DNA from: an uncultured Myxococcaceae bacterium
Lineage (GTDB): Bacteria > Myxococcota > UBA727 > JABDBI01
Length of the DNA: 64,000 nucleotides
Assembly (NCBI GenBank): GCA_964635635.1
Contig: CAZWPE010000001.1
Location: 107,774 to 171,773, forward strand
Reading direction: 5' to 3'
Part shown: positions 2,054-60,210 of the stretch, one piece after another
Layout of the letters: every line of letters starts with the position of its first letter
How positions within the stretch are numbered: the stretch's first letter is position 1
Notes under the pieces: model-generated
Told to the model about the DNA's origin: nothing
What the model saw: the letters and a program-made list of their open reading frames with translations, nothing else
Databases searched by the model: none
Program-made: the position numbers and the translations under genes

Positions 2054-2073
2054 GGCGTCTGTTCTTTTGTTCC

Positions 2074-2097
2074 TGCGCCCCTATCCAGGGGCTTTAT
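2074..2097 (+). terminator. Putative rho-independent terminator after the E1 gene
   Basis: Hairpin gcccct-atcc-aggggc followed by tttatt. Confidence 0.45.
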
Positions 2098-2235
2098 TCG
2101 AGGAGGAATCCTGTTAACCCACCCCAACGCAATGCGCTTTGCGCCTTGCTATGGGTGGGCTGTGGCACCTTCGCCCCAAAGGGGCTTTCGAAATCCCAGA
2201 AAAACAAAGATAATCTTGCCTGCGACTAACCTTCT

Positions 2236-10332: not shown

Positions 10333-10397
10333 ATTTGAAAAACAAATAAGATTTATTTATTATATAAAAAGTTTCAGTGTCTGGTGAGGGGGATCCA

Positions 10398-38068: not shown

Positions 38069-38917
38069 ATGTTTTGGTGTTATGAAATCCGCGTGAAAGC
38101 TCATAATTTAGCCCATTGGCAAGGATTTGTGATTAGTGACCATTCTCATGACCGTACACGAAAGTTGATGCGGGGTATGATTAAGACAATCTGCGACTAT
38201 GATTTGGTGAAAGCTGGGGATCATATCATGGTTGCGGTTTCAGGTGGTAAAGACAGTTATACGCTGGCGGACTTCCTGTGGCAGGCTAAAAGGAAAGCAC
38301 CATTTGATTTTAACATGACTGTGGTCCATTTGGACCAAATGCAGCCGGGTTACGATGGAGAGCCTCTGCGAAAATGGTTGGAAGCCTCAGGGATTCCATT
38401 TGAGATTATTCAGCAGGACACGTACTCGATTGTCAAAGAAAAGACCAAAGAAGGTGGAACGTACTGTTCGCTGTGTTCGAGACTCAGACGAGGGATTCTC
38501 TATACGACTGCTGAACGACTCGGTTGTAATAAGATTGCTTTGGGACATCACCGAGATGATGCTCTGGAGACGCTGATGCTGAATCTGTTCTACGCAGGAA
38601 AACTCCAAGCCATGCCAGCGATTTACAAAACAGACGATGGGCGTTTTGATGTGATTAGGCCGCTGATTGAAAGTGCTGAGAAAGATATTGTGTGGCATTC
38701 AAAGAGAGCTGAATACCCTATTTTGCCTTGTAATCTTTGTGGTTCTCAAGAAGGTTTGAAGCGAGAAGCTATGTCAAAACTTTTGGAGCAGCTTGAGGGT
38801 GAGATTCCTGATGTCAGGCAGGTCATGCTGAACGCAATCAAAAATGTTCAGCCAAGTCACTTGCTCGATAAAACAGCGTTCTCCAAACGAACTAGGCTGG
38901 CTGTTTTGGAACAGTGA
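38069..38917 (+). CDS. ttcA: tRNA 2-thiocytidine(32) synthetase TtcA
   Basis: PP-loop SGGKDS; CSLCSRLRRG and CNLCGSQ Fe-S cysteines. Confidence 0.85.
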   Translation: MFWCYEIRVKAHNLAHWQGFVISDHSHDRTRKLMRGMIKTICDYDLVKAGDHIMVAVSGGKDSYTLADFLWQAKRKAPFDFNMTVVHLDQMQPGYDGEPLRKWLEASGIPFEIIQQDTYSIVKEKTKEGGTYCSLCSRLRRGILYTTAERLGCNKIALGHHRDDALETLMLNLFYAGKLQAMPAIYKTDDGRFDVIRPLIESAEKDIVWHSKRAEYPILPCNLCGSQEGLKREAMSKLLEQLEGEIPDVRQVMLNAIKNVQPSHLLDKTAFSKRTRLAVLEQ

Positions 38918-40547
38918 TGCTCATACCAGGTCTCGAAATCGAAAGGTCCTCTATGATGACATTTTCAGAACCTGCCAAACGCATGATGGCAGCGATGCAT
39001 TCGGTATCTGAAAAACGCTTCAAAGATCCTTTGAAGGGGTGAGTATTTCGGCCGAACCAGTAGGCGTCTCCAATCTCGGTTCTCAGTCCAGCAAGCTCAG
39101 GATGTTTATTTTCAAGGTCCTTCATCTGACCGCTATACCACCAACGTGTTAGCCAAGACTTATTGAGGAGTTGGCCGTATTGGTACGCAGCTTCAAAATC
39201 TTTGATGAGAGGTCCATTCCTGTCCAAATAGGCATAGAACGCTTCTTTAAAAGATGAGAGCTGAATCTTTCGAATTCCTGTGTGAGTTAACTGAATATCT
39301 GCATGAACTTCAGTCCCAAAGCTGTCCCAAAATGTTTGTTTGGCATCTTCTAATACAGATATGCGAAGAGCTTCAGTGAGCTCAAAAAAAACTGACGCGT
39401 GCGGGGTGTCCAGATTTAAATGACAAGAGGCCTCTTTGGAACGTTGATTTGGGCCTTCAAGAGATTTCCACTCCCAGGCGAGTTTTACTTTGGAAAACCA
39501 ATAAGATATGTATTCCCTGGTACTGTTGAAGCACTGATAGACTTGGGTTCCAATTTCGGTTCGTTTTTCGCTCTCGCTAATTCCAAAAAAACGCAGTTTC
39601 CAGTCTGCTAGTTCAAAGTTTGAACCAAATGAATAGCCAGATTTATTTTCAGTCCCACTTTTTCCAAGGCCGAGCTTGATTGCTTTGTCGGTTGAACACT
39701 TGAAAAAAATGTCTTCAAAAGCCTGTGCGTGTTCTGGATTTGATAAATCAAATTCAAATCGTGTGAATGCATTTGTGTGATTTTGTTTTCCTGCTTCAAA
39801 AATAAATAAGGCAGAACCAAACCACTTGAGCCAATCAAAATAGTTGAGAACTTGTCTTCCAATTCGCCCAAGAAAGGAAGTCGGTAAGCCATCATTCTCT
39901 TGTTTGTATCCAATGGAATTTTCGTTTTCATGATCGCGGATGAAGCTAACACTTACTTTGCCAGGCTCTGGAAGTTTTCGAGTTAGTAGGGTGAGAGCAG
40001 TTTTTTCCGAGTTTTGGAGTCCTAAGTAGCAACTTAACCTAAAAGCTCCTTTTACTTCGGCAGAGATTTCAAACTCCGAACCTGCTGGAAGTTCTGCCGC
40101 TAGAGCGGCTTTAATAGGTAATTGGAGAGCATTTCCGAGGGAGGCGCCTTTGGGTAAAGAACCGGATGGACAGAAATAGGGTTCATATCGGCGTATGTTG
40201 ACTTGTGTGTTAAACTTATATCCTCCTGAAATCGAGGCAAATGACCCAAGAGGTATTGAAGTTCCATTTAAGAGTGAAAGGTCTATTAGTCCTTTTGTTT
40301 CTAGCCAAAGCAGACCAGGTTCTCGGCTTCGAATAATTTTCTCGGACACCTTTATAGCTGCAGCAGAGTTCTCTGAGAGACTCCATTTATGGGAGCCAGT
40401 TTCATACAAAGACTGGAGGCCTGTGGCGCCAATTTGTTCGAGAATTTGGCTGATACCTATTGGGAGAGCAGTTCCTAGTTTTGAGCTTAAAATATCAAGG
40501 GTATTTGCGGTATAGGTTGGTAGAGTCCTTGCTCTTAGATCCAGCAT
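38892..40547 (-). CDS. Hypothetical protein (551 aa), no recognisable domain
   Basis: Long uninterrupted ORF with coding-like composition. aggagg upstream of the ATG at 40547. Confidence 0.55.
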   Translation of the reverse strand: MLDLRARTLPTYTANTLDILSSKLGTALPIGISQILEQIGATGLQSLYETGSHKWSLSENSAAAIKVSEKIIRSREPGLLWLETKGLIDLSLLNGTSIPLGSFASISGGYKFNTQVNIRRYEPYFCPSGSLPKGASLGNALQLPIKAALAAELPAGSEFEISAEVKGAFRLSCYLGLQNSEKTALTLLTRKLPEPGKVSVSFIRDHENENSIGYKQENDGLPTSFLGRIGRQVLNYFDWLKWFGSALFIFEAGKQNHTNAFTRFEFDLSNPEHAQAFEDIFFKCSTDKAIKLGLGKSGTENKSGYSFGSNFELADWKLRFFGISESEKRTEIGTQVYQCFNSTREYISYWFSKVKLAWEWKSLEGPNQRSKEASCHLNLDTPHASVFFELTEALRISVLEDAKQTFWDSFGTEVHADIQLTHTGIRKIQLSSFKEAFYAYLDRNGPLIKDFEAAYQYGQLLNKSWLTRWWYSGQMKDLENKHPELAGLRTEIGDAYWFGRNTHPFKGSLKRFSDTECIAAIMRLAGSENVIIEDLSISRPGMSITVPKQPA

Positions 40548-40640: not shown

Positions 40641-41048
40641 ATGCCGATTTCAACAGTGGGTGGTGGAGCTCAGCAAGTTCAGCAGTTGCTGAAACAGGTT
40701 CAAAATCAGATCAAGCCATCTGCGCCAGGACAGCATAATTTTGCTCAGGTGTTGGGCAATAAGACGGGGGTAGAACAAGGCGGGGTTGCTCCTATTCAAA
40801 ATGCACAACTTACGAAGACTCAAAAAGTACCATCGGCCATTCAGTCTTTGTTCAATAACTGGTCTAAAGACTCGAATGCAATGCACAAAATTACCCAGAT
40901 GACGCTGAGTGGACAACAGTTTACACCGTCACAGCTCTTAGGCCTTCAGCAAGCTACCTATAAAGTCACGTTTGAACTTGAGACCATGAGTAAGTTGGTT
41001 GAACAAGCAAGTTCGGCGGTTAAAACAACCATGCAGACCCAGGTCTAG
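40641..41048 (+). CDS. Gln-rich small hypothetical protein; possible T3SS needle/inner-rod-like C-terminal helix
   Basis: taggagg RBS and -10-like tagaat upstream. C-terminus PSQLLGLQQATYKVTFELETMSKLVEQASSAVKTT loosely resembles SctF/SctI C-termini. Confidence 0.5.
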   Translation: MPISTVGGGAQQVQQLLKQVQNQIKPSAPGQHNFAQVLGNKTGVEQGGVAPIQNAQLTKTQKVPSAIQSLFNNWSKDSNAMHKITQMTLSGQQFTPSQLLGLQQATYKVTFELETMSKLVEQASSAVKTTMQTQV

Positions 41049-43472: not shown

Positions 43473-43841
43473 ATGCAAGCATGGTGGATGATTTTGACCG
43501 GAGTTTTGGCAGGGGTAAGTGCAGGGATTTTTGGAATTGGGGGTGGGGTTATTTTAATCCCGATTTTAGTACTCGCATTCAAGTATCCGCAAGTAGTAGC
43601 CAATGGAACTTCACTCGTTGCTCTGTTATTGCCTGTAGGGATTTTTGGGGTGTTGGAATACTACAAAGCCGGTAAAATCACAGGTGAAAACATCAAATGG
43701 GGCTTGTTTATTGCCCTAGGGATGTTTGTGGGAACTTATCTAGGTGCGCGCCTAGCCGTTTTTTTGCCGGTACGCGTCTTAACCAAGCTTTTTGCGGGCT
43801 TCTTGCTTTTGGTCTCGGTGCGTCTTTTTCTCTCACGGTAG
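43473..43841 (+). CDS. TSUP (TauE/SafE) family half-size membrane permease
   Basis: GIFGIGGGVILIPILV motif; four TM segments. Confidence 0.6.
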   Translation: MQAWWMILTGVLAGVSAGIFGIGGGVILIPILVLAFKYPQVVANGTSLVALLLPVGIFGVLEYYKAGKITGENIKWGLFIALGMFVGTYLGARLAVFLPVRVLTKLFAGFLLLVSVRLFLSR

Positions 43842-47603: not shown

Positions 47604-48752
47604 TCAGTTCCCACAAGCCTTAAACCCATCTATGAAACCAATACGATTATTTTTTCGATCGAAATGGATGTATTGGTTTTCCATCACGGCTTGACCTAGA
47701 ATAACGAAATCGCTGCCTGTAGGTGCAAAACCGAATACGCAGAGGTTTTCTTGTGTGCTCTTCATGTAAGATTCTGGGCGAATGGTTAGTTGGAGACCAC
47801 CTTCAAAGGTGAGGATGATATTTGGAAGATTGGCGAGTCTCACACTGCTGCAAACGAGTTCTTTCTCGCCTGCCCAAAATTTTTCGTCTGTGGGTAGATT
47901 GCTATTTGCCGCTTGAATTTGTTTCACCATGGCTGAGTGCATAGCAGATGGGATCGCGCTTACAGTTGTTCCACTGTCTAGGATGGTGCAAGTTCTAGAA
48001 CTTTCAGCTTGAGCACATGGGGTTCCACCATTTGGGTACGGATATTCTGGGAAATCTCCAAGTTTGTTATCCGAATTCACGCTACCGAGATAAGCGGACG
48101 TCGCATTTAAAACATACCAACTTTTCTCTTTAACTGGAGTATAATTGGCGTTTGTAAAGCTACCTAGGGATGAGTTGGTGCCGCCAAAAATAATTTGGCT
48201 GTTACCATCGTGTGCAACGCCACATAAGAGTGTGCTGAATTCATTACTCATGCCAGTTGTGGTAGTTAGATCTGCAAAGAAAGTATGATCCTGATTACCT
48301 TGAGCGACACCCTCATAGGCAAGACCCATGATTTGAGGAGTACATGCACTGCCTGTGCATGACTGGATGCTTCCAATGTAGTAGTTTGGAATCCCTGCAC
48401 CGCAACTGAAATCAACAAAGCCGATGTAATTTTGAACGCTGATTGTTGTTTGACCGCCATAAAATATTGGAAAGGGTGAACCTGTGAGTTCTAGATTGTT
48501 GGTGTTAAATCCGCTGCTTGTATTATCAATGACTAAATTAGAGCTTCCTGTGTCTGCTACTAATTCCATTGTCTGGCCATTGACCACTAGTGAAATGTGA
48601 TATTCGAGCGTAGAGCCGACATTTTGTCTCAGTGCGCTTCTGTTTGTTACAAATACATGCTTGAGGCCGTAGGTTGGGTTACTGCAGGGTGGGTTTGACT
48701 TGCTGCAGGCTATAAACAAGATAATCGAAAAGAGTAAACTAGAAAGTTTCAT
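47604..48752 (-). CDS. Pepsin-like (family A1) aspartic protease lipoprotein
   Basis: Lipobox LFIACS. Two catalytic motifs VADTGSSNLVI (pepsin DTGSSNLWV) and ILDSGTTVSAIP (pepsin DTGTS). Confidence 0.75.
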   Translation of the reverse strand: MKLSSLLFSIILFIACSKSNPPCSNPTYGLKHVFVTNRSALRQNVGSTLEYHISLVVNGQTMELVADTGSSNLVIDNTSSGFNTNNLELTGSPFPIFYGGQTTISVQNYIGFVDFSCGAGIPNYYIGSIQSCTGSACTPQIMGLAYEGVAQGNQDHTFFADLTTTTGMSNEFSTLLCGVAHDGNSQIIFGGTNSSLGSFTNANYTPVKEKSWYVLNATSAYLGSVNSDNKLGDFPEYPYPNGGTPCAQAESSRTCTILDSGTTVSAIPSAMHSAMVKQIQAANSNLPTDEKFWAGEKELVCSSVRLANLPNIILTFEGGLQLTIRPESYMKSTQENLCVFGFAPTGSDFVILGQAVMENQYIHFDRKNNRIGFIDGFKACGN

Positions 48753-48780: not shown

Positions 48781-49389
48781 TTAAAGCAATAAACTTTCTA
48801 GTATTAGTTGTGCGTTAACGTGTCTGCCTAGATCCTGAACTGCTTTGAACAACTTTTCTTTGAATTCAAGTGAAGCGTTCTGATTCCAAGCCTGAAAAAT
48901 CGGTTCTAAATCTGTTTTTGATTTGACCAAGCTTTCAATCAATTCCAAACGCTCAAGCCGGCTTTCTGGAATTTCGGGAGCTTTTTCTGCGTCTAATTGG
49001 CGAGATACAGAAGGGACATTAATCCGCTGACATCTTGAAACCAGCGTTGGCAAAATTGAGCGGGTACTAGGTGCAATCAAAATAAAGAATTGATTGCCGC
49101 GTGGTTCTTCAAGTGTCTTAAGCAAGGCATTGCTTGCTTGCTTATTGAGCAGCTCAGCCTGCGGGATAATCCAAGACAAGCTCGGTGATCCTGAGATTAA
49201 ATCTCGAATCTGATCAACTTTGAGTTCAGAGCCGTTCTCAGATTCTAGTTTTACAAATCGGACATTCATCTTGGAAAGAAGTTCCACTGCAAGACGTTCT
49301 TTCTCTGTTTGGTCGTCACCTACAAAAAGTAGTGCATGCGAAAGACGATTTTTTTTCATCGCAATTTCGAATTGGTGACATAGTTGCAT
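48781..49389 (-). CDS. holB: DNA polymerase III delta-prime subunit-like (no P-loop)
   Basis: LEEPRGNQFFILIAPSTRSILPTLVSRCQ matches the delta' sensor/arginine-finger region. The ORF extends to 49449. Confidence 0.65.
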   Translation of the reverse strand: MQLCHQFEIAMKKNRLSHALLFVGDDQTEKERLAVELLSKMNVRFVKLESENGSELKVDQIRDLISGSPSLSWIIPQAELLNKQASNALLKTLEEPRGNQFFILIAPSTRSILPTLVSRCQRINVPSVSRQLDAEKAPEIPESRLERLELIESLVKSKTDLEPIFQAWNQNASLEFKEKLFKAVQDLGRHVNAQLILESLLL

Positions 49390-49617
49390 AAATAGAAGTC
49401 CTCCCAAATAGGAAGAAACGCAATTACGCAATCTTTGTCCCATTTGCAAACCGGCTCAAGTCCCTGAAAATATTTTGATTTTAAAATATTAAAGAAATAT
49501 TTTGTTTTGTAAAGAAAATAATCTAGAACGCTCGACCCATCGTATGGGTTTAAGACAAGATAATAATAGATAAAAGGTTTTCGTTTGTGGAAACCCAGGT
49601 CTAAGGAGGATTTTACA

Positions 49618-50199
49618 ATGGCTGAAAAAGTCGTACGTGCAGGGATTGAGCGTAAAAAAGGGTGGCTTTACTATTTAGATAAGAACTTAAATGTATATAG
49701 AGTTAAAATGGTTCGCGGTGGCGAAAAGAAAGCAAAGGGTGAACGCCCAGAGCTGGTTCTTAAGACCGATATGAGAAGAGACCAGAACTATTTGTATTAC
49801 GTAGATAAGGCAGGGGACATTTCCCGTGTCAAGGCAAGCCGAGGAGGCACTGCCCGTAAAGGTAAAAAACGCCGCAGAACCGCTGCGCAAAGGAAAGCAA
49901 TGTTAGAGAAGAAGAAAGCTCTGAAGAAGAAGAAAGCTGAAGCTAAGAAGAAAAAAGCCGCTGCTAAGAAGAAGAAATCAGCAGCTTTGAAAGCTAAGAA
50001 GAAAGCTGCAGCAGCTAAGAAGAAAGTAGCTAAGAAGTCTAAGAAAGTTAAGGCTAAAAAAGCTGTTAAAAAGCCAAAAGCTAAGAAAGTAGTCAAAAAA
50101 GCTAAGGCTAAAAAAGCTGTCAAAAAGCCAGCTAAGAAAAAAGCCGCTCCTAAAAAGAGCCATGGCAAAAAGAAAGTAGCTAAGAAGAAAGCTGCTTAA
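49618..50199 (+). CDS. Histone H1-like Lys/Ala-rich protein with a duplicated N-terminal module
   Basis: taaggagga RBS 7 nt upstream. Two 35-aa repeats (GWLYYLDKNLNVYRVK.. / NYLYYVDKAGDISRVK..) followed by an about 100-aa AKKKK-type tail encoded by low-complexity tandem DNA. Confidence 0.7.
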   Translation: MAEKVVRAGIERKKGWLYYLDKNLNVYRVKMVRGGEKKAKGERPELVLKTDMRRDQNYLYYVDKAGDISRVKASRGGTARKGKKRRRTAAQRKAMLEKKKALKKKKAEAKKKKAAAKKKKSAALKAKKKAAAAKKKVAKKSKKVKAKKAVKKPKAKKVVKKAKAKKAVKKPAKKKAAPKKSHGKKKVAKKKAA

Positions 50200-50209
50200 T
50201 AGCGCTTTC

Positions 50210-50252
50210 CCTATAACCCTCTCCCTCTGGGAGAGGGCAGGGAGAGGGATAG
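50210..50252. repeat. Family-1-like GA/CT palindromic element, intergenic, immediately upstream of a terminator
   Basis: CCCTCTCCCTCTGGGAGAGGGCAGGGAGAGGG. Confidence 0.6.
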
Positions 50253-50253
50253 A

Positions 50254-50286
50254 CCCCCGGGGGATTATTACCCGGGGTTTTTATTT
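50254..50286 (+). terminator. Rho-independent terminator (ccccgggggattattacccggggttttt) after the histone-like gene
   Basis: GC stem plus T-run, preceded by a family-1 palindromic element. Confidence 0.65.
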
Positions 50287-50302
50287 GTGATAGGCTCAAA
50301 CA

Positions 50303-51082
50303 ATGGCCTTTTGGATATTTTTGTGGGGCGCCTGTATTGGTAGCTTCTTAAACGTTGTTATTCTGCGCCTGCAAAGCAGCGAACATAGCTTCTGGACTAA
50401 GCGGTCTTACTGTTTTCATTGCCATAAGACCATTCAATGGCATGACTTGGTTCCTATATTTTCTTGGATTTGGTTGCGTGGGCGGTGCAGATTTTGCCAC
50501 GCTCGAATTTCGCCAAGATATGCCCTCGTTGAGTTGTTAACAGGCTGTTTGGCGGCTGTTAGCTGGCTTTATGCGCCTGATTTGATGGGTATGGCTGATG
50601 TTTTTGTGTTTTGTGGCCTGCTTCTAGCAATAGGACTGATTGATTTAGATACCTGGCTTATTCCTGTTCCACTGTTGGTTATTTTGATAGCCGTTGGGCT
50701 TGGGTTTGGATTGTTGGAGGGAGAAGCTGAATTCCTTAATCGTTTATGTGGGTTAGTGCTGGGATTTGGTACTCTGGCGCTATTTTTATTGGTTTCGACT
50801 TGGGTTTTGCGTCGCTTAGGCAGGATTGGGCCTGGCGAGTATGCCATGGGTTGGGGGGACCCGGTCTTATTGGGTGGAATTGGCGCGGGTTTGGGTTGGT
50901 TTCCGCTATCGTTTGTAGTCACCTTAGCCAGCCTTCAGGCGGTTTTGCTATATGGATTCTTTTCGTGGGCAAGAAAGCCGCTGCCAGATGACACATGGGT
51001 TCCTCCGGAGCGTTCAATGCCATTTGGACCATTTTTAGCACTCACTGGAGTTGAATTGAGTCTGTATTATTTGTTATATTAA
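50303..51082 (+). CDS. pilD: Type IV prepilin leader peptidase (A24 family)
   Basis: GSFLNVVILR, zinc-binding CxxC..CxxC (CFHCHK..CRFCH), DUF1805/peptidase A24 TM core. Confidence 0.85.
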   Translation: MAFWIFLWGACIGSFLNVVILRLQSSEHSFWTKRSYCFHCHKTIQWHDLVPIFSWIWLRGRCRFCHARISPRYALVELLTGCLAAVSWLYAPDLMGMADVFVFCGLLLAIGLIDLDTWLIPVPLLVILIAVGLGFGLLEGEAEFLNRLCGLVLGFGTLALFLLVSTWVLRRLGRIGPGEYAMGWGDPVLLGGIGAGLGWFPLSFVVTLASLQAVLLYGFFSWARKPLPDDTWVPPERSMPFGPFLALTGVELSLYYLLY

Positions 51083-51087
51083 AATTA

Positions 51088-51510
51088 ATGAAAGTATTTA
51101 TACTGATTATTTTTAATTTTACAGTCATCTTTGCGTTTAGTTTGTTTTTTGAAAGAAGCAATCAGGGTGATTTATTTAGAAATCAACAGCAGGAAAAAGC
51201 GCTCTTAAAAAATCAGGAAGTCTGGTTTAGGGCTTCCGATTATATTGCGCGCAGAGATTTTTTGGCATTGCATTTAAGTGAATTGGGGCAGGAGATCGAA
51301 TCGAATCGGACTCGAATTTCAGATTTAGCGCGCTGGATTAATGAAACACCCAAAAATATTTCTCTTTATGAATTATCGATGGATGAAGATTCAATCGATG
51401 TATCTGGTTTGGCTAAATCAGAAAAAGCCTTGCAGTCTTATCTGCAAGATCGTGATTTAAAACTTCTCTCGGAGAAGGGAAAAGTCTTTAAAGCCTCGGG
51501 GGCACTATGA
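51088..51510 (+). CDS. PilN-like type IV pilus assembly protein
   Basis: N-terminal TM helix, coiled coil, and C-terminal ISLYELSMDEDSIDVSGLAKSEKALQSYLQ resembling the PilN periplasmic domain. Confidence 0.5.
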   Translation: MKVFILIIFNFTVIFAFSLFFERSNQGDLFRNQQQEKALLKNQEVWFRASDYIARRDFLALHLSELGQEIESNRTRISDLARWINETPKNISLYELSMDEDSIDVSGLAKSEKALQSYLQDRDLKLLSEKGKVFKASGAL

Positions 51511-52355
51511 GATCAGTGTTGAAGTCAATACTCGTTATTTTAGTGATTGTGGCTAGCTGGGTAGGTGCTTACGAGTTGGTTTTTAAAAATCAACTTGCTG
51601 AGAAAGCTCGGCTGGTTAAACAAATGCGAGAGCAAGCTTGCGTGGTTGATGAACTTAAAAAGCTCTCCCGTGAAGCTACTCCTGCGCGCTATGAGAGTAT
51701 TTTGAGTCCAGCTTTAGAAACATTGGTAGAAAAAGTTCCGGCTACTCCGGATGTTTCAGAATTGATTACAGAATTAACTGCGTTAAGCAAGAAAGCAAAA
51801 ATTAGTTTGGTGAGTTATGAAACAACTCAAAATCAGGAAAGTATTCTTGCGGAAATTCGAGTTGCAGGCGGAGTAAAGCAGGTATTTGAATTTTTGGCGG
51901 GTTTGTCTAATCTTGAACGTTTGGTTTTGGTTGAACGTTTCAACTATGAAAACCGTAGCGCTGAAATCTGGTTGAAAGCTCCGTGGGGCCAGTTCAATCT
52001 GGGTGAAGTTTTAGCGAGGCATATACCCTACCACTGTGGAGCTGCTGAACAGTTAAATTTTAGTTCAATTGAGATTCCGTGGCTTTCAGTGTTGAGTCAA
52101 AAAATTTCTCCAGTTACTCGAAACCCATTTTTGGAGCGTTCTCAACATATAACTGCACGCGGCCTACATTTAGTGGGCCTTGTGCAGCAACGCTCAGCTT
52201 GGTTGGCATTGGTTGAAGATGAACATGGTTTTGGTCAAGTGATTCGTGTTGGGGATAAGCTGTCTAATGGCTTTCAAGTGCTAGGAATCTCTCGGCAAGG
52301 TCTTTCACTGGCGAGTGGGAACATTCGGCAAACTATGACTTGGAGGAAACCATGA
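51507..52355 (+). CDS. PilO-like / PilP-like fusion protein
   Basis: TM helix plus PilO-like core (IRVAGGVKQVFEFLAGLSNLERLVLVERFNY). C-terminal PilP-like beta-domain (HLVGLVQQRSAWLALVEDEHGFGQVIRVGDKLSNGFQVLGI). Confidence 0.5.
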   Translation: MRSVLKSILVILVIVASWVGAYELVFKNQLAEKARLVKQMREQACVVDELKKLSREATPARYESILSPALETLVEKVPATPDVSELITELTALSKKAKISLVSYETTQNQESILAEIRVAGGVKQVFEFLAGLSNLERLVLVERFNYENRSAEIWLKAPWGQFNLGEVLARHIPYHCGAAEQLNFSSIEIPWLSVLSQKISPVTRNPFLERSQHITARGLHLVGLVQQRSAWLALVEDEHGFGQVIRVGDKLSNGFQVLGISRQGLSLASGNIRQTMTWRKP

Positions 52356-52687
52356 TGCGTTTATTTTTGACCATGTTTCTAATCTCGAGTTTAGGTTTTG
52401 CACAATCTATTGTTTTGGGGCCAAGGAGACATAAAGTTCCAAAAGGCCTGATTAAAAAGCCGATGATTGATCGGCGAAACCCAAAAATCGACTTTGTTGA
52501 GTTTAGGGAAGCGACCATGGGAAACGTGCTTTCATTAATTAAAAAATATGGCGGCATTAAAGGTCAGTATGAGATCGATATGTCCGCCGAGGTGAATTTA
52601 AGACTGGTGGATACGAATTGGTCCGCTTTGAGAAATACCGTTCTAGAAGAAGCAAGACCGCTTGAAAAATCAATGCGCTCGCGGTAG
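52340..52687 (+). pseudogene. Secretin N-terminal (STN/Secretin_N) domain-only ORF; likely truncated pilQ remnant
   Basis: Signal peptide plus IDFVEFREATMGNVLSLIKKYGGIKGQYEIDMSAEVNLRLVDTNWSALRNTVLEEA. Stop at 52687, efp begins at 52699, and no secretin C-domain follows. Confidence 0.45.
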
Positions 52688-52698
52688 TAACTGCCTTC

Positions 52699-53256
52699 AT
52701 GTACAGTACATCCGACTTTAAGAGGGGCCTTAGAATACTTTTTCAAAACGAGCCCTACCAGATTGTTGAATTTGAACACCACAAGCCAGGTAAGGGCGCT
52801 GCGATTGTTCGAACCAGGCTTAAAAATTTGCTTACAGGCCTTACAATAGACCCAACTTTCCGTTCGGGTGACAAAGTAGATGTGCCAGACCTTAACGACC
52901 AAGAAGTTAATTTCTTGTATGAGTCAGATGGCGTGTATCACTTCATGAATCCTGTTTCTTTTGAACAGTTTGAAGTGCCTACTAAAATTTTGGGTGAAAG
53001 TGCGCAGTTTTTGATTGAAGGCCTAACGGTCTCATTACTCTTTTATATGGGTCGCGCGGTTAATATTGAGCTGCCGAAGAACGTTGTGCTTGAGGTAACC
53101 TCATGCGACCCTGCTGTGCGCGGGGATACTGTCAGTGGTGCAATGAAGCCAGCAACTTTCCACACGGGTTTCAGGTGTCAGGTCCCATTGTTTGTCAATG
53201 AGGGTGACAAGATTAGGATTGATACCCGAACTGGTGAATATTTAGAGCGTGCCTAA
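52699..53256 (+). CDS. efp: Elongation factor P
   Basis: MYSTSDFKRGL..HHKPGKGAAIVRTRLKNL with the conserved K/R beta-hairpin. Confidence 0.9.
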   Translation: MYSTSDFKRGLRILFQNEPYQIVEFEHHKPGKGAAIVRTRLKNLLTGLTIDPTFRSGDKVDVPDLNDQEVNFLYESDGVYHFMNPVSFEQFEVPTKILGESAQFLIEGLTVSLLFYMGRAVNIELPKNVVLEVTSCDPAVRGDTVSGAMKPATFHTGFRCQVPLFVNEGDKIRIDTRTGEYLERA

Positions 53257-53448
53257 ATATCTATCACCACCACTTGATGCTCATGAGACTGTTCAGTCTC
53301 CCCAGTGTCGTCTGGTGACGGGTATTCTAAGTCTGACTCGTCTGGCGTTGGAAGCCTAACGCTTTCATCGTGTTTTTTTTCTCGTTCGCGTTTGCGTTCG
53401 TTTTCATCTTCAATCACCCAAGGGGGTGGAAGTCGGTTGGCCAATCTC

Positions 53449-54486
53449 ATGAGTTTAGAATATCAGGCTTTTCAGTTTGCGAAATCAAAACATGCCTCTG
53501 ATCTTGTGTCAGATATTCGTGAGTTGTGGGAGGCTTTGACTGTTGAGCGCTCAGAAGGCCTGGCTCAGTACTTTCGCAAGCCAGGTTTAAGACGCGCTTA
53601 TCTTGGTTACTATGTTCCAATGTATGCGATGAAAATCGCGGCTCTTTTGCGTGATTTGAATTTGCCGCTTAAAAAACCGAATGTACTGGATTTAGGCGCA
53701 GGACCTTTATCGGCTGTCTGGGGCGCCCAGATTGCATATGGCGAATTAGGCCAAGTTCTCGCGGTAGACCAAGATTTAGGACCTATGAAGGCAGGTCTTG
53801 AGTTGCTTGATGCAATTTCACCTGTGAAAAATATTCATTTGGCGCGTGCAAATCTCAAGGGTCCGCCGAATTTTTGGAAACCAAGGTTCAAGCCAGATTT
53901 AATTTTGATGGCTCATGTTCTAAATGAGTTTGGTTCTGGTGAGCGATATTTAGAAGATAAAAAGATGCTCTTGGTTCATGCGGTGAATCAATTGGCGCCG
54001 GACGGTATTATTGTGGTTATAGAGCCAGCCTCAAAGGTTCCGACCCGTGATTTAATGCTGCTCAGAGACTGGTTATATGAAAGTGGCCAAGTGGAAATTT
54101 TAGCGCCTTGCCCGCTCAATGTTGCACGCTGTCCTTTGTTGGTAGACAGAAACAACTGGTGTCATGCTGATCTGCCGTATCAGCGTCCTGAGGAATTGCG
54201 AGAAATCGATTCGAAAATTGGTTTTGAGCGAGAAGTTTTAAAATGCAGCTATCTAGTGATTGCTCGCCGTGGATTTAAGTACGAAAAAACGAATTGCCGA
54301 ATCGTGAGCGGTCATATGAACGCACGTGGAGTAGATAGACGCTATGCATGCATGCCAGAGGGTTTGATGACTCTTTCCCAAAATGTTCATGAAAAACCAG
54401 TCATATTGGCATCACTCAGGCGCGGCGAGTCGGTAAGCCCAGAATCCTGGCCCAAAAAGCTTGTAAATATTTCCAAAGAATCTTAA
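53449..54486 (+). CDS. Rsm22-family SAM-dependent methyltransferase
   Basis: VLDLGAGP SAM motif and C-terminal Cys cluster APCPLNVARCPLLVDRNNWCH. The upstream Ser-rich extension (53305-53448) is judged non-coding. Confidence 0.7.
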   Translation: MSLEYQAFQFAKSKHASDLVSDIRELWEALTVERSEGLAQYFRKPGLRRAYLGYYVPMYAMKIAALLRDLNLPLKKPNVLDLGAGPLSAVWGAQIAYGELGQVLAVDQDLGPMKAGLELLDAISPVKNIHLARANLKGPPNFWKPRFKPDLILMAHVLNEFGSGERYLEDKKMLLVHAVNQLAPDGIIVVIEPASKVPTRDLMLLRDWLYESGQVEILAPCPLNVARCPLLVDRNNWCHADLPYQRPEELREIDSKIGFEREVLKCSYLVIARRGFKYEKTNCRIVSGHMNARGVDRRYACMPEGLMTLSQNVHEKPVILASLRRGESVSPESWPKKLVNISKES

Positions 54487-54498
54487 GTTTTTTGCCAG

Positions 54499-55557
54499 AT
54501 GGCAGAGCAGGGCGAAGAGAAAACAGAAGAGGCGACTCCGCAGAAGTTGCGCAAGGCGCGTGAGAAAGGCCAAATCGCCAAGAGTCAAGATTTGGCATCA
54601 GCGTTTGTTTTCTTTTCTGCGTTGGGTGCTCTGGTTGTTTCACTGAGCTGGATGGTTCAGAAGATAAATGACCTTTTTATGCTCAGTGTCCAGTCAATGC
54701 ATGCAGAGCATATGGGCAAGGCAGTTTTAACTGTTGTCCGAGAAGGTGGCTGGACTTGGTTGCTCGTATCGATCCCAATCGTACTAGGTGCTTTTATTGG
54801 TGCGCTGGTGGGAAACTATTTGCAGGTTGGCTTTATGTTTACGCTGGAGCCACTGAAACCTCAGTTTAACAAAATTAACCCGATCAACGGTATTAAGCAG
54901 ATGTTTAGTGTCAAGCGTTTGGTCGAGCTTTTGAAGCAGATGGCCAAGTTTATCATGGTTTCTGCTGTGGTTTATTTAGTGCTCAAAGACGCAGTGTTTA
55001 ACTTAGTAAACATGCAAAGTCTGCAGCTGACCGAAGCGTTGCCAATTATTTATGCGATTATTAAGGATATTTTTCTTAAAGTTGCTGTGTTGTTTTTGAT
55101 TATTGCTGTGCTTGACTGGTTTTGGCAGCGGCATAGTTTTTTAAAAAGCATGCGGATGACCAAGTACGAAATCAAACAGGAATACAAAGAGTCAGAAGGG
55201 GACCCTCAGCTAAAATCAGAGCGAAAGCATTTGGCTCAAGAGCTCATTATGCATGGCAGCCAGCAAGCAGTGAAGAAAGCAGATGCCGTGGTAACCAATC
55301 CAGATCACTATGCCGTGGCGATTAAATATGACACGAAAGAACACGCAGCTCCAATTGTTGTCGCGAAGGGAATGAACAAGAATGCGGAGGCAATTAAAAA
55401 AATTGCAAATCAATATCGCGTTCCGATTATTAGAAATGTTAGTTTAGCCCAGGCACTTCATAAGCTTGACTTAGACGAAGAAATCCCAGAAGAGCTTTAT
55501 GATGCTGTCGCGGAAGTTTTGAACTTTGTTTACGAGTTGAGGAAGAAAAATGGCTGA
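54499..55557 (+). CDS. Type III secretion export-apparatus switch protein, SctU/YscU/FlhB family (autocleavage motif variant NPDH)
   Basis: Four TM helices plus cytoplasmic domain with VVTNPDHYAVAIKYD (canonical NPTH) and C-terminal PIIRNVSLAQALH. Confidence 0.85.
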   Translation: MAEQGEEKTEEATPQKLRKAREKGQIAKSQDLASAFVFFSALGALVVSLSWMVQKINDLFMLSVQSMHAEHMGKAVLTVVREGGWTWLLVSIPIVLGAFIGALVGNYLQVGFMFTLEPLKPQFNKINPINGIKQMFSVKRLVELLKQMAKFIMVSAVVYLVLKDAVFNLVNMQSLQLTEALPIIYAIIKDIFLKVAVLFLIIAVLDWFWQRHSFLKSMRMTKYEIKQEYKESEGDPQLKSERKHLAQELIMHGSQQAVKKADAVVTNPDHYAVAIKYDTKEHAAPIVVAKGMNKNAEAIKKIANQYRVPIIRNVSLAQALHKLDLDEEIPEELYDAVAEVLNFVYELRKKNG

Positions 55558-55912
55558 TAGAATTTCGGGCCCCTTGGCCAGTGGTGTTGGACTAGGAAGC
55601 GTATCGCCAGCTGATATCGAGTCGCTTAAACCAAAACCGGAGCAAGCTCAGCCCTCAGCTATTGCGCCATTGGCTACGCAAAACCAGTTGAAAGCAGCAG
55701 GTTCAGGCATGCGTGCCCTTGATTCTGGAAGACTTGAATCGCCAGGTAAGACTTTTATGTCAACCATGGCAACTCGTCACCATGTCGGACGCATACTGCA
55801 GAAACTGCCTCAGACAGAGGATAACTTTGGGAAGCTCGAGCCAATGGTGAAAATTCTCAAGTCCTATCATGCGTGGACCAACGATATCGTTAGAGTTTTG
55901 GGGAGAGTATGA
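55550..55912 (+). CDS. Hypothetical protein translationally coupled between sctU and the TPR chaperone gene
   Basis: ATGGCTGA overlap with the sctU stop and ATGA overlap with the downstream start. Confidence 0.5.
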   Translation: MADRISGPLASGVGLGSVSPADIESLKPKPEQAQPSAIAPLATQNQLKAAGSGMRALDSGRLESPGKTFMSTMATRHHVGRILQKLPQTEDNFGKLEPMVKILKSYHAWTNDIVRVLGRV

Positions 55913-56307
55913 ATACTGCTGTGCAATATACCCCGGAAGAACTTCAGTCGATTGCCCAAATCGCTTACTACATGATGATGCAGGGTAAGATGAAAGATGC
56001 CCAGACGTTGTATGAAGGGCTAGTGGCTTTAGACCCTTCACAAGAATATTATTTCAGAGCGTTGGGTGTTCTCGCTCAAAAAAATAAGGACAGCCAACTG
56101 GCGCTGCGTCATTTTGGTTATGCGATTCAATTGGCGCCTGGTAAACCTGAAGGGTATGTGAATCGCGCAGAGATTTATATTTTTCTAGGCCAACCGGAAG
56201 AAGCTGCTGCTGATCTCAAAGAGGCCTTGAATAAAATGAGTCGCCAGGACCAAATGTTATCTCAAAAGGCCTGGGCTCTCTATAGAAGCCTTAAAGCGGG
56301 TGTATAA
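55909..56307 (+). CDS. TPR protein resembling class II T3SS chaperones (SycD/LcrH/CesD family)
   Basis: 132 aa with three TPR-like units (AQIAYYMMMQGKMKDAQTLYEGLVALDP, YYFRALGVLAQKNKDSQLALRHFGYAIQLAP, GYVNRAEIYIFLGQPEEAAADLKEAL). Size and organisation match SycD-like chaperones. Confidence 0.55.
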   Translation: MNTAVQYTPEELQSIAQIAYYMMMQGKMKDAQTLYEGLVALDPSQEYYFRALGVLAQKNKDSQLALRHFGYAIQLAPGKPEGYVNRAEIYIFLGQPEEAAADLKEALNKMSRQDQMLSQKAWALYRSLKAGV

Positions 56308-56383
56308 CTTCGTCATTGCGAGGCACTTTAGTGCCGTGGCAATCCATAAATCCTGGACTGCTTCGCGATGCTCGCAGTGACGA

Positions 56384-57616
56384 TTAGATAGCTCTTAACA
56401 ACTCGGGCGCCTTTTGACGCATGATTGCTTCTTCATCAACAATCACACCCGAAACAGATTTATCGCTGGGTAGGTTGTACATCGTATCGAGCATGGCGGC
56501 TTCTAAAATGCCGCGAAGTCCTCGGGCGCCGGTTTTCTTGGCCAATGCCATTTTAGCTGCACGCGTCAGCGCATCAGGAGTGAATCTTAAAGACGCTCCA
56601 TCAAGCTCTAGCAAGCGAGCATATTGTTTGGTGAGGGCGTTCCGTGGTTCTGTCAACACGCGAACCAGGGCTTCTTCTGATAAGTCTTCAAGAGTTGCAA
56701 CTACGGGAAGACGACCAACAAATTCCGGGATAAGACCATATTTAAGCAAGTCATCAGGTTGAACCTGCTTTAAAATATCTTCGGGGGTTGAGGTGCTTCT
56801 GGTGAGAATCTTTGCTCCAAAACCGAGTGTTTTTTGACCGACGCGAGCTTCAATGATTTTCTCTAAGCCCACGAAAGCGCCACCGCAAATAAATAAAATT
56901 TGAGAGGTATCAACTTTGAGGAAATCTTGATTTGGGTGTTTACGACCACCTTTTGGGGGAACGTTGCATAAAGTTCCTTCAATCAATTTAAGCAAAGCTT
57001 GCTGAACACCTTCTCCTGAGACGTCCTTGCTGATGCTACGGCTTTCACTTTTACGAATGATTTTATCTATTTCATCGATATAAACAATTCCGCGCTGAGC
57101 GGCTGCCACATCCCCGCCTGCTGCTGCCAGTAGACTAGAAATCATAGTTTCAACATCTTCACCGACATAGCCTGCTTCGGTGAGAGAAGTGGCATCTGCC
57201 ATGGCAAATGGAACTTTCAGGATACGTGCAAGCGTTTGTACAAGCAGTGTTTTCCCTGACCCTGTGGGGCCGATGAGTAAAATATTGCTTTTGGAAAGCT
57301 CGACATCAGACATATCTGTGAGGTTGTTGATTCGTTTATAATGGTTATGAACGGCTACGGAGAGAATCTTTTTGGCTCGGTCTTGTCCAATGACATAATT
57401 ATCCAAGATTCCCTTAATGTCTGCGGGTCTCAGAAGCTGATCTTCTTCGTGTTCTGAGCGCTTTTGAGCTTCTCCAATAACGATGTCTTTGCAAAGGGTA
57501 ATACAGTCTTCACAAATATTAACCTCTGGACCAGCGACAAGCTTTTTAAGCTCACTCCCGGTCTTTTTGCAAAAAGAGCATAAAACGTTGGATTCTTGCC
57601 TGCGCCCAATAAACAT
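56384..57616 (-). CDS. clpX: ATP-dependent Clp protease ATP-binding subunit ClpX
   Basis: Zinc-binding CSFCKK..CEDC; Walker A GPTGSGKT; Walker [10 protein letters not shown]. Confidence 0.95.
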
Positions 57617-57620
57617 ATGA

Positions 57621-58211
57621 CTATGCCTCGTGTCTTGTAACAATTTTATCAACAATTCCGTATTCGATGGCTTCTTGAGCACCTAAATAGAAATCTCGAT
57701 CTGTATCTTTCTCAACCTGTTCAAATGGCTTGCCCGTGTGGCGCACAATGATCTCATTCAGGGTTCGCTTGGTCTTAATGATTTCACGTGCCTGGATTTC
57801 AATATCAGTTGCCTGACCTTGTGAGCCCCCGTGTGGCTGGTGAAGCATCACACGACTATTTGGCAGAATAAAACGTTTACCTTTGGCGCCAGAAGTTAGT
57901 AAAAAGGCTCCCATCGATGCTGCTTGTCCAACGCAGACAGTCGACACATCACAACGGACATACTGCATGGCATCATAGATTGCCAATCCACCGGAAACGA
58001 TTCCGCCTGGTGAGTTAATGTAAAGCGTGATGTCTTTGGTTGCATCTTCACTTTCTAGAAATAGCAGCTGAGCCACAATGGAATTAGAGACCTGGTCGTC
58101 GATGGCAGTGCCAAGAAAAATAATTCGATCTTTAAGAAGTCTAGACCAAATATCGTATGCTCTTTCGCCTCTAGGCGTTTGTTCGATGACGGTAGGTGGA
58201 AAGTAGCTCAT
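57621..58211 (-). CDS. clpP: ATP-dependent Clp protease proteolytic subunit ClpP
   Basis: Catalytic GQAASMGA (Ser), His and Asp context. Confidence 0.95.
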
Positions 58212-58786
58212 GGTTTTTCTCCGTAAAAAATAGGAATGCCGGTTGGGATCTCCAACTGACTGATTTCAGAATCAGGTATCTTATCTAGCTCTTTTAGCAG
58301 AGCTCTTAAAGAGTTACCATGGGCTACTATTAAGACAGTCTTTCCGGCCTTGAGTAGGGGCTCAATTTCCTTAAAATAGTAAGGAATTACACGTAGATAG
58401 GTGTCTTTGAGACTTTCGCCGCCCGGGGGGGCTATGTCATAGCTTCTGCGCCAAACATGGACTTGCTGGTTTCCATACTGCTGGGCAACCTCAGCCTTAT
58501 TGAGTCCTTGGAGATCTCCATAGTGCCGTTCATTAAGTGCCTGATTTTTGGTCATGGGGCAGTCTGCTTGTCCTGCTTCTTCAAGCGCGATTGTTGCTGT
58601 ATCAATTGCGCGTTTTAGTTCTGAACAAAACACATGATCAATTGAAACATTTTTCAACCGCTTTCCTGCTTTATGAGCTTCTTCAGCGCCGAGTGGACTC
58701 AAGTCTACATCAACCCATCCGGTGAATTTATTGTCCCTATTCCAAGTTGATTGTCCGTGACGAAGTAAAATAAGACGCCCTTGCAT
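58208..58786 (-). CDS. Histidine-phosphatase family phosphoglycerate mutase (dPGM-like)
   Basis: [12 protein letters not shown] catalytic-His motif. 4-nt overlap with the clpP start. Confidence 0.8.
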
Positions 58787-58852
58787 TGTTTTGTCCTAAT
58801 AAATATTCCAATGTGCGTCAACAAACCAAAAATTTTTTCTTGACTTAAAGAC

Positions 58853-59344
58853 TTGAGAAAGGCATCTATAACACATATGGCCCACGGGCAAGCTCCACGC
58901 TCAACTCATGCATATGAAAAGTACAAAGCAAACCTACATGCTTTGTTTGACGGTAAGAAACGTATTGAAGATTTTACTGCGCCACAAGTAAAGGTTGCTG
59001 TAAAGCCAACAAGACGGACCTCTGGCACACCTGTTTTTAGTTATGATATTTTTCTGGAAGCAATTAAGCGTTCAGTGACTCCAGATGAAGTAACGAGAAC
59101 AATTAATGCGTTAATTGATTCAGGGCATCAGATTCCCATGGATGAAGATATTTTATCAAAAGCCCTAATTCACCGTGATGAATCTGTTGTCTTGACGATG
59201 CTGACTAAACTGGGTGAACTTTTGAATAAGAATCCAGTCAAAAATGCAAGATTGTTAAAGACTCGATTGGAAAATCTTCTTTTGATCAGTGCAGCTTCTG
59301 AGGTGAAAGAGTTAGCCAATACTCTCATGCAAAAAATGTTATGA
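58853..59344 (+). CDS. Hypothetical protein, ATGA-coupled to dprA
   Basis: ORF with coding-like composition. Stop overlaps the dprA start. Confidence 0.4.
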   Translation: MRKASITHMAHGQAPRSTHAYEKYKANLHALFDGKKRIEDFTAPQVKVAVKPTRRTSGTPVFSYDIFLEAIKRSVTPDEVTRTINALIDSGHQIPMDEDILSKALIHRDESVVLTMLTKLGELLNKNPVKNARLLKTRLENLLLISAASEVKELANTLMQKML

Positions 59345-60210
59345 GTTTAGAGGTATTGGGGGCGCAGGGGGTTTTTGAGTTAGGTCGCTTAGCTCGAGCA
59401 CCCAGTGTTCCAAAGCTTGTTTATGTCCGTGGAAACCCTCAGTTACTTCGCACGAAACCAAGTGTGGCTATCGTAGGAACCCGAAAACCCAGCCAGACAG
59501 GATTAAAGCGCGCTTATGATTATGCACATGCATTGGCCTCTAAAGGCTGCTTAGTGATTTCTGGTGGCGCGATGGGTATAGACTACGCCGCACACCGAGG
59601 GGCTTTGGCTGCTGGAGGTGAAACTCTGGTTGTGCTGGGAGATCCTGTTTCGGAAACAGGCGATGAGCGACCTAAGCGTATTCGAGACTTAGAACCAGCA
59701 GAGAAAGTCACAACTTTGACGACCTATGGCCCGGGAACCAAAATAGGCAAAACACTTTTTGTTGCGCGCAATCAATATATTGCTGCATTAGCAGATGCAG
59801 TTATCATCATTGAAGGGACATTGAACTCAGGCACACTGCATACCGCAAGATATGCTCAAAAAATTGGCATACCTATTTGGGCAGTGCCGGGTGACCCGGA
59901 TAATCAGCTCGCAGAGGCTTCCAACTCACTTTTGGAAGCAGGCGACGCGCGGGCGCTGTATCGTTTGGATGCGCTACTTGAAAGTCTTGGGCTCGGAACT
60001 GTTCAGGAGGCCGTGTCTAGACAAGAGCCTAAAGACGCAGGACCACTTTACCCGCATTTTAAAGCCAACGCCGGTCGTGTGACGCTGGATTTGCTTTGTG
60101 AAGCCATGAAGGGTGAACCTGTCTCTTACATTCAAACCGAGCTGCTCCAGATGGAGCTTCTCGGACTTATTCAACGCGAAGGTGCTGAGTTTGTTCTGAC
60201 CAGCAAGTAG
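59341..60210 (+). CDS. dprA: DNA-processing protein DprA (Smf)
   Basis: Rossmann-like LVISGGAMGIDYAAHRGALAAGG; C-terminal winged-helix-like region. Confidence 0.8.
   Translation: MSLEVLGAQGVFELGRLARAPSVPKLVYVRGNPQLLRTKPSVAIVGTRKPSQTGLKRAYDYAHALASKGCLVISGGAMGIDYAAHRGALAAGGETLVVLGDPVSETGDERPKRIRDLEPAEKVTTLTTYGPGTKIGKTLFVARNQYIAALADAVIIIEGTLNSGTLHTARYAQKIGIPIWAVPGDPDNQLAEASNSLLEAGDARALYRLDALLESLGLGTVQEAVSRQEPKDAGPLYPHFKANAGRVTLDLLCEAMKGEPVSYIQTELLQMELLGLIQREGAEFVLTSK

Follow-up and report, generated by a model that had tools for sequence, protein, structure and literature searches.

The C-terminal secretin domain of bacterial secretins forms the outer-membrane beta-barrel and gate. In a complete N0 fold, of about 75-80 residues, two helices pack with a three-stranded sheet on one side and a C-terminal beta hairpin on the other. 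In Neisseria meningitidis, the C-domain of PilP binds the N0 domain of the secretin PilQ edge-on via first strands, and the changes in chemical shift fall mainly on the beta1-beta2 hairpin on the PilP side and on the first strand and first helix on the N0 side (PMC3441751). Crystal structures of the GspC homology region (HR) with the N0 domain of GspD show an interface that beta1 and alpha1 of N0 form with HR strands one to three, where beta1 of HR pairs with beta1 of N0 (PMC3169554). Secretins can also be encoded in parts: RhcC1 corresponds to the N-terminal and RhcC2 to the C-terminal secretin part, and R. etli possesses only rhcC1 (PMC3574062).

In the 64-kb stretch of DNA analysed here, hereafter the window, the gene that follows the pilN- and pilOP-like genes encodes only a small secreted protein, which we call mini-N0. 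It belongs to a new, as yet unannotated family of free, truncated PilQ-N0 mini-proteins (see below). An earlier sequence-only reading of this DNA had described an open reading frame at 52340..52687 (+) of 115 aa that begins with a signal peptide, ends with tandem stops and is followed 12 nt later by efp. The frame exists as described, the predicted signal peptide is of the typical Sec type, and the tandem stops TAG TAA occupy positions 52685-52690. The length of 115 aa holds for the frame counted from the TTG at 52340, the earliest possible start. However, the ATG at 52352 is preferable as start, giving 111 aa, since GGAGGA lies 5 nt upstream of it, since it overlaps the TGA stop of the preceding 282-aa gene as ATGA, and since it is used by all public gene calls; the 111-aa product (P0001) is found verbatim in public collections. 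The gene efp does lie close behind, starting at 52699, with 11 nt and not 12 after the mini-N0 stop codon, and its product carries all three EF-P domains (Pfam EFP_N, EFP and Elong-fact-P_C). These 11 nt leave no room for a frameshifted secretin, and the C-terminal secretin domain is thus truly absent, as the sequence-only reading had proposed. The features of the locus are collected in Table 1.

Table 1. Position of mini-N0, its predicted parts and neighbouring genes in the window.
Feature	Coordinates	Strand	Remarks
Prepilin peptidase (PilD/GspO-type, peptidase A24)	50303..51082	+	A24_N_bact 1.6e-30, Peptidase_A24 3.9e-10
PilN-like bitopic protein, 140 aa	51088..51510	+	weak Pfam PilN match, E=6.5e-4, 20.1 bits (cutoff 22.8)
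PilO~PilP fusion, 282 aa	51507..52355	+	TM helix, PilO domain, C-terminal PilP/GspC-HR-like beta domain (about 215-282)
mini-N0 protein gene	52352..52687	+	111 aa including signal peptide; ATGA overlap with upstream stop; TAG 52685-52687, then TAA
Sec signal peptide (predicted)	52352..52402	+	residues 1-17; predicted cleavage between GFA and QS; hydrophobic core, small residues at -3/-1
Mature N-terminus QSIxL	52403..52417	+	residues 18-22; directly after predicted cleavage
N0-like core	52484..52654	+	residues 45-101: beta1 (FVEFREA), alpha1, loop, beta3 (VNLRLVDTNW), alpha2
SctU (T3SS)	54499..55557
SycD/LcrH-type chaperone (T3SS)	55909..56307

The same arrangement is found at related loci. 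The mini-N0 start codon overlaps the PilO~PilP stop as ATGA or TAATG in nine of nine loci, and the gap between the mini-N0 stop and efp measures 4-27 nt in the eight loci where efp comes next and the sequence continues past the stop. Read-through or a frameshift into a downstream secretin is ruled out by this proximity of efp. A promoter and terminator scan of positions 49300-54600 returned nothing decisive, and in particular no terminator on the + strand between the mini-N0 gene and efp. An independent Logan assembly of run SRR16481186 (L004, 8,703 bp) is 100% identical to window positions 51330-60032, which supports the reported sequence over 8.7 kb. As the same gene structure also recurs in eight more contigs from other samples, an assembly artefact is ruled out.

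Homologues of the protein are few and uniformly short. Four close homologues of 104-111 aa came from a word-indexed search, a HMMER profile scan of 1.84 billion representatives returned eight proteins of 92-112 aa at E<=1e-3, and a profile search of a 5.8-billion collection gave 19 proteins of 90-114 aa, down to 26% identity. Altogether 21 homologues were found, all of them 90-114 aa long and 26-100% identical to mini-N0. No longer protein matched the mini-N0 profile in the 1.84-billion and 5.8-billion collections at E<=1e-3, a threshold that a PilQ match of about 30 bits would miss in libraries this large; thus, the family has no close relative among full-length secretins. A metagenome scan with the family alignment yielded no relative, and a scan of representative genomes identified one locus only (L008). 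Two relatives bear the NCBI labels 'Myxococcales bacterium nzgw262' (L008) and 'Myxococcota bacterium' (P0007, GCA_040384225.1).

A comparison of synteny in relatives, likewise recommended at the outset, showed that the order pilD / PilN-like / PilO~PilP / mini-N0 is kept in L001, L004, L005, L006, L008, L009 and L010. Wherever the contigs are long enough, the genes for a pepsin-like protease, HolB (holB), a Lys-rich protein, the prepilin peptidase (pilD), the PilN-like protein and PilO~PilP precede mini-N0, and efp, an Rsm22-like methyltransferase gene and sctU come after it. At one further locus (L002) an unrelated 285-aa gene is next after mini-N0, yet mini-N0 ends at the same place. Comparison of the window gene with its closest orthologues by the Nei-Gojobori method gave dN/dS values of 0.07-0.12, at dS above 1 or saturated.

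These observations bear directly on the proposal, made by the sequence-only reading as one of its two options, that the pilus secretin is decaying and that only the 5' piece of pilQ is still open. In favour of such a pseudogene remnant, the frame occupies the pilQ position, contains nothing beyond helix alpha2 of N0 and has no Pfam or NCBIfam match. However, 21 of 21 homologues are short and share one structural end point at identities down to 26%, the low dN/dS is accompanied by saturated dS, and both synteny and translational coupling are conserved. Moreover, no secretin leftover follows the gene, neither in the 4-27 nt that separate it from efp in eight loci nor in L002 with its unrelated neighbour. 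Relaxed selection, variable truncation and disruption in relatives were all not found, and the homologues are not near-identical strains. We consider a pseudogene to be extremely improbable. Mini-N0 is instead a conserved, selected stand-alone secreted protein and not a decaying secretin, and its truncation is of long standing and stably maintained in an uncultured lineage labelled Myxococcota/Myxococcales by NCBI. This agrees with the other option of the sequence-only reading, a stand-alone N0-domain protein: its orthologues form a conserved independent family, an outcome that had been named beforehand as a refuting one.

The relationship of this family to PilQ emerges at the level of profiles. 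The window protein has no Pfam match (E<=1) and no NCBIfam match, the 19 family members gave no relevant Pfam match at E<=10 with the STN and Secretin_N models included, and a single-sequence phmmer search with mini-N0 found no match in the PDB. Family profiles were run against 177,635 PDB sequences. With a 12-sequence profile (E<=10), seven of the eight matches were PilQ N0 domains, the best at E=4e-5, and the exception was the weakest match. With a 19-sequence profile, all seven matches were PilQ N0, with E ranging from 4.9e-6 to 1e-2: Vibrio cholerae PilQ (6w6m, E=4.9e-6), Myxococcus xanthus PilQ (3jc8_Q, E=2.4e-4), Pseudomonas aeruginosa PilQ (6ve2 and 9x0w, E=4.6e-4), the isolated N0 domain of N. 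meningitidis (4ar0, E=1.6e-3), and the PilQ structures 4av2 and 9sh1 (E about 1e-2). The alignments to PilQ N0 of five species are in register over 51-66 residues; all cover the same stretch of N0 and end at profile position 93 of 97, which corresponds to the end of alpha2.

One might still suspect an unrelated small periplasmic protein whose likeness to N0 arose by chance or through composition, as the silence of the Pfam STN and Secretin_N models and the Foldseek E values above 0.6 (see below) could indicate. This is very unlikely, since PilQ N0 domains from five species are nearly the sole PDB matches of two profiles, over 51-66 residues and with E down to 4.9e-6, and since the gene occupies precisely the pilQ position behind pilO-pilP. 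By the measure of these profile comparisons, the homology of mini-N0 to PilQ N0 is established. The secretin N-domain recognised by the sequence-only reading is therefore confirmed through the family profiles as far as its kinship goes, although Pfam remains silent and only a part of the domain is present. Mini-N0 carries only the first ~55 residues of N0 (beta1-alpha1-beta2/3-alpha2), and the window protein ends 10 residues past alpha2, so that nothing remains of the last N0 strands, of N1 or of the secretin barrel. Judged from the alignments, mini-N0 is about two thirds of N0 and not a complete domain. No residues are left for an N1-type ring-building domain, and no Pfam Secretin match (PF00263) was obtained for mini-N0; all 21 homologues likewise lack the secretin domain.

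The AlphaFold2 (AF2) model computed with 19 sequences has a core (residues 45-101) with pLDDT 77-90, in which a strand (45-55), a helix (56-67), a second strand (80-89) and a second helix (90-101) follow each other; with four sequences the model was unusable (pLDDT 43). This predicted beta-alpha-beta-alpha arrangement, with its two strands and two helices, falls short of the complete N0 fold, just as the alignments end at alpha2. Foldseek searches of the PDB gave weak matches, with E all 0.67 or higher and an rmsd of about 2.5 A over 55-62 columns. The weak list consists mostly of N0/STN folds, namely PilQ N0 (4ar0, 3jc8_Q, 4av2), the N0 domains of GspD/XcpQ/LspD, InvG, a chain taken to be DotD, a PupR-type STN-like domain and phage baseplate hubs. 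The modelled fold is consistent with homology to PilQ N0, without being independent proof of it. Note also that a half-domain without the C-terminal N0 strands might fold unlike N0.

The anatomy of the family is simple. All members share the pattern of a Sec signal peptide, which in the window protein reads MMRLFLTMFLISSLGFA and is followed by QS; no lipobox Cys is present at the cleavage site, and mini-N0 is thus ruled out as a lipoprotein. The mature protein, free-standing and of ~90 residues, is predicted to begin with QSIxL, which is more highly conserved than any other segment of the family (mean top-residue frequency 0.85) and in which Q18, S19, I20 and L22 are invariant in 19 of 19 sequences. 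In the AF2 model this region is not confidently placed (pLDDT about 54-65). A variable, basic linker rich in Lys and Pro, of about 10-45 residues, connects it to the core of ~57 residues, which conforms to [FY][VI]EFR[DE]A-x-L-x-NVL-x-LI ... loop ... [DE]LSLRLENVSW-x-x-LLKII-x-x-Q-x-x-P. Within this core, beta1 is the most conserved element (0.73). Most members stop right after alpha2, ending in 'Q..P', and members of the window clade run on for about 10 more residues. In L001 the last five residues of mini-N0 are cut off by a stop codon, which indicates that the short C-terminal tail is dispensable and the core is not. A half-domain built from two strands and two helices would leave a hydrophobic face uncovered, which fits an obligate complex, and QSIxL might stand in for the missing N0 strands or be a second docking element.

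The sequence-only reading had placed the gene immediately after pilN and pilOP, and both neighbours could be confirmed. The prepilin peptidase gene is the first of the conserved block and holds the same position in L001, L009 and L010. The PilN-like protein, whose weak PilN match recurs in L010, is encoded by a frame that begins 5 nt past the pilD stop, so that no N-terminal extension is possible. Its family alignment starts with 'MK' and continues with a hydrophobic stretch that corresponds to the transmembrane helix; starting directly with this helix, the protein has no cytoplasmic PilM-binding N-terminus. The next protein combines PilO with a PilP/GspC-HR-like domain. Pfam PilO matches eight of eight family members (best 2.4e-14), and the family profile finds M. 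xanthus PilO in the PDB at 4.2e-14. The C-terminal ~65 residues match PilP (3jc8_P, E=0.022, query residues 219-273) and GspC (7oio, E=0.12), and Pfam searches of this region returned T2SSC in five of eight members (1.4e-5), Y4YQ_C in seven (2.8e-5), and HofP and PilP in two each. The 282-aa family is most conserved at residues 221-250, where the PilP-like domain has its first strands. A profile search with the fusion found at least five proteins, with no relative in which a full-length pilQ follows the fusion among the matches listed.

Taken together, the conserved beta1 of mini-N0, the conserved first strands of the PilP-like domain, the strict adjacency of the two genes and their translational coupling make binding to the PilP-like domain, we infer, the likeliest function of the protein. 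By analogy with complete machines, mini-N0 beta1/alpha1 would most likely engage this domain as N0 does there. We thus regard mini-N0 as probably a functional periplasmic descendant of PilQ N0 that occupies the ancestral pilQ slot and binds the PilP-like domain encoded upstream. The protein would have originated from the N0 domain of the type IVa pilus secretin PilQ, in the pilQ slot of a pil(M)NOPQ operon, and would since have shed the AMIN region, the final N0 strands, N1 and all of the outer-membrane secretin domain. What was kept would be strand beta1 with helix alpha1, the element that docks edge-on to the beta1-beta2 hairpin of PilP or of GspC HR. After Sec export and cleavage of its signal peptide, mini-N0 would bind the PilP-like C-terminal domain of PilO~PilP, with translational coupling favouring matched amounts of the two partners, and would thereby complete or cap the periplasmic face of the PilN-PilO~PilP inner-membrane platform. 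This proposal leaves the invariant QSIxL motif unaccounted for.

The same contact could in principle serve regulation. Mini-N0 would then be a decoy derived from a paralogue: its N0 fragment would compete for the PilP-like domain with the N0 of a full-length PilQ or GspD encoded elsewhere, and would so time the engagement of platform and secretin. A protein that is predicted to be soluble and periplasmic and that keeps just the PilP-contact elements would suit this task. However, coupling with the putative target suggests roughly equal production, which is a better fit to a structural partner, and a location in the ancestral pilQ slot is more readily expected of an orthologous remnant than of a paralogue; we therefore find a decoy improbable. 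Besides this regulatory role, the roles remaining downstream of the proposed PilP binding are those of a structural cap or partner of a platform undocked from PilQ and of an N0 acting in trans for a secretin without one; which of them applies would depend on the presence of a secretin gene elsewhere in the genome.

The wider surroundings of the gene provide clues to the machine that it may serve. The conclusion that this locus encodes no canonical PilQ, already drawn by the sequence-only reading, extends to the whole 64-kb window, which encodes no secretin, PilM, pilus ATPase, platform protein or pilin. The same parts are absent from all flanks examined in relatives, and no secretin lies within about 20 kb (+/-10 kb) around three of them. 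No class III (prepilin) signal peptide was found by a regular-expression search of the window and of L001-L011, the single match lying inside a PilN-like gene. At the same time, the retention of a prepilin peptidase speaks for a pilin-based machine of some kind that is still at work in the lineage; the lineage is diderm, given the BamA gene in L009. The T3SS components of Table 1 lie in the same window, which also encodes the eukaryote-like proteins ankyrin, HEAT, thaumatin, pepsin-like protease and a carnitine acyltransferase-like protein; T3SS parts and eukaryote-like proteins together suggest a host-associated lifestyle for the lineage.

In this setting, mini-N0 could be one half of a split secretin, a separate N0 polypeptide acting in trans with a secretin that has no N0 of its own or that lacks the missing strands. 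The idea finds a parallel in the RhcC1/RhcC2 split of the rhizobial T3SS secretin (PMC3574062). In line with it, the prepilin peptidase next door implies that a pilin-based machine operates, which in a diderm needs an exit through the outer membrane, and the N0 fold of mini-N0 is incomplete, as if a partner supplied the remainder. However, no partner secretin is found in the 64-kb window or in the about 20 kb around three relatives, and RhcC1 is much larger than mini-N0. To our knowledge, split secretins have so far been known for T3SS only. A split secretin appears unlikely here. A broader proposal, which we put forward tentatively and regard as doubtful, is that the type IV pilus or type II-like machine of this lineage has its inner-membrane platform uncoupled from a canonical secretin. 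Mini-N0 would then either act in trans as the docking module of an N0-less outer-membrane channel, a split type IV pilus secretin, or cap the end of a periplasmic pseudopilus machine that works without a secretin in a diderm, with QSIxL as a second contact.

Returning to mini-N0 as a probable partner of the PilP-like domain, the locus would represent a secretin reduced by evolution to its contact element and kept under strong selection beside a PilO~PilP fusion and a PilM-independent PilN. Should the proposed binding hold, mini-N0 is a natural minimal N0 fragment that defines what suffices for PilP binding, and it points to a split type IV pilus (T4P) secretin or to a secretin-independent role of the PilNOP platform. 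We also would like to point out a practical consequence: the family has no Pfam or NCBIfam model and all its members are annotated as 'hypothetical', so that surveys scoring pilQ as present or absent will mis-score these genomes.

Several known systems invite comparison with mini-N0. The lipoprotein DotD belongs to the outer-membrane core complex of the Legionella Dot/Icm type IVB system, where it serves as a structural subunit; it is a small envelope protein that consists essentially of an N0-like domain with the full fold. The Foldseek match to chain 7mud_Ad (E=2) is one that we take, from its chain label, to be DotD. In contrast to DotD, mini-N0 carries no lipobox Cys at position +1 and has a truncated fold, and the two proteins share no sequence similarity. 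The STN domains of TonB-dependent transducers and anti-sigma regulators, such as the C-terminal cell-surface signalling domain of PupR, belong to the same beta-alpha-beta fold class and appear among the weak Foldseek matches (6ovk, 4m0h). However, they have no sequence-level match to mini-N0, as Pfam STN is absent from it, and they act in iron signalling, whereas mini-N0 stands in a pilus-assembly context. RhcC1 (NolW), of about 230 aa, resembles mini-N0 in that an N-terminal secretin part forms a gene of its own, separate from RhcC2. However, RhcC1 comprises several N-domains and is much longer, the pair belongs to a T3SS and not to T4P, and no sequence relationship to mini-N0 was detected. 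The closest counterpart is PilQ itself. Its chain goes on into the last N0 strands and N1, which mini-N0 lacks together with AMIN and the barrel, and it has neither the QSIxL N-terminus nor the basic, proline-rich linker of mini-N0. The two are nevertheless alike over beta1-alpha1-beta2/3-alpha2, with the signature '..F.DA.L.NVL.LI ... L.LRL.NV.W..LL.II', their genes likewise come directly after pilO/pilP, and the conserved part is precisely that of the PilP-contact elements, beta1 and alpha1.

The PilN-like protein begins with MK followed directly by a hydrophobic stretch, so that a membrane helix is present from the outset, and the space upstream of it is too small to encode a cytoplasmic PilM-binding tail. 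The same helix-first N-terminus is found in all six aligned relatives, and no pilM lies within the block formed by pilD, the PilN-like gene, the PilO~PilP fusion gene and the gene for mini-N0 (the secreted protein derived from the PilQ N0 domain). At one homologous locus, L002 (JGI 3300045612), the mini-N0 gene is followed by an unrelated gene, which separates it from the next one and fills the slot held by efp in the other loci; its 285-aa product has an N-terminal membrane helix and an acidic, Gln-rich body.

Features discussed, in window positions except for the L002 gene (own locus coordinates)
Feature	Position	Strand	Remark
Eukaryote-like protein cluster	2236-3429, 3402-4808, 4996-6192, 10377-12899, 18835-20547		
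SufD-like gene	23938-24528	+	196 aa as listed
Family-less ORF	36902-37966	-	354 aa
Family-less ORF	38892-40547	-	551 aa
Family-less ORF	40641-41048	+	135 aa
TauE/SafE-matching ORF	43473-43841	+	122 aa
Pepsin-like aspartyl protease, eukaryotic-type	47604-48752	-	Pfam Asp 2.8e-26, TAXi_C 1.3e-11
Protein with H1-like tail	49585-50199	+	204 aa
PilN-like protein	51088-51510	+	
PilO~PilP fusion	51507-52355	+	
T3SS fragment	54499-56307	+	two genes 3' of efp
Family-less ORF	58853-59344	+	163 aa
L002 gene in efp slot	1403-2260	+	285 aa

The 204-aa protein encoded 5' of pilD combines two N-terminal repeats (…YYLDK…V.RVK..RGG…) with a long, Lys/Ala-rich tail resembling histone H1; a Pfam search assigned it to no family, and its position is unchanged in three relatives (L008, L009 and L010). 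The pepsin-like protease, whose synteny is conserved in L009 and L010, carries a Cys within its signal sequence (…FIACSKS) and is therefore possibly a lipoprotein. Elsewhere the window encodes a cluster of eukaryote-like proteins, comprising a choline/carnitine acyltransferase-like protein, a HEAT-repeat protein, two ankyrin-repeat proteins and a thaumatin-domain protein. Their presence suggests that the organism lives inside cells or in association with a host.

Four sizeable ORFs of the window matched no Pfam family at E<=1e-3. The lowest G+C content of the window (0.419) is reached at 36-40 kb and, equally, at 48-52 kb. The 122-aa ORF matches the TauE/SafE sulfite-exporter model only at positions 2-110 of 237; it encodes a transporter of half the usual size, or else the gene has been truncated. 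The SufD-like gene of the suf operon matches SUFBD_core positions 74-232 and overlaps the end of sufC by ~40 nt, so that its product may be a shortened SufD or its start may have been set wrongly.

The type III secretion (T3SS) fragment encodes SctU (Bac_export_2), a family-less 120-aa protein and a TPR chaperone of the SycD/LcrH type (TIGR02552, 5.5e-23), and it is kept in every relative whose contig reaches far enough. In seven of the eight family members of the PilO~PilP fusion, the PilP-like domain at the C-terminus (residues ~215-282) is matched by the Pfam model Y4YQ_C, at best with 2.8e-5. As PMC3574062 lists Y4yQ as the SctD component of the rhizobial T3SS, this match hints that the secretin-facing end of rhizobial SctD is PilP/GspC-HR-like.
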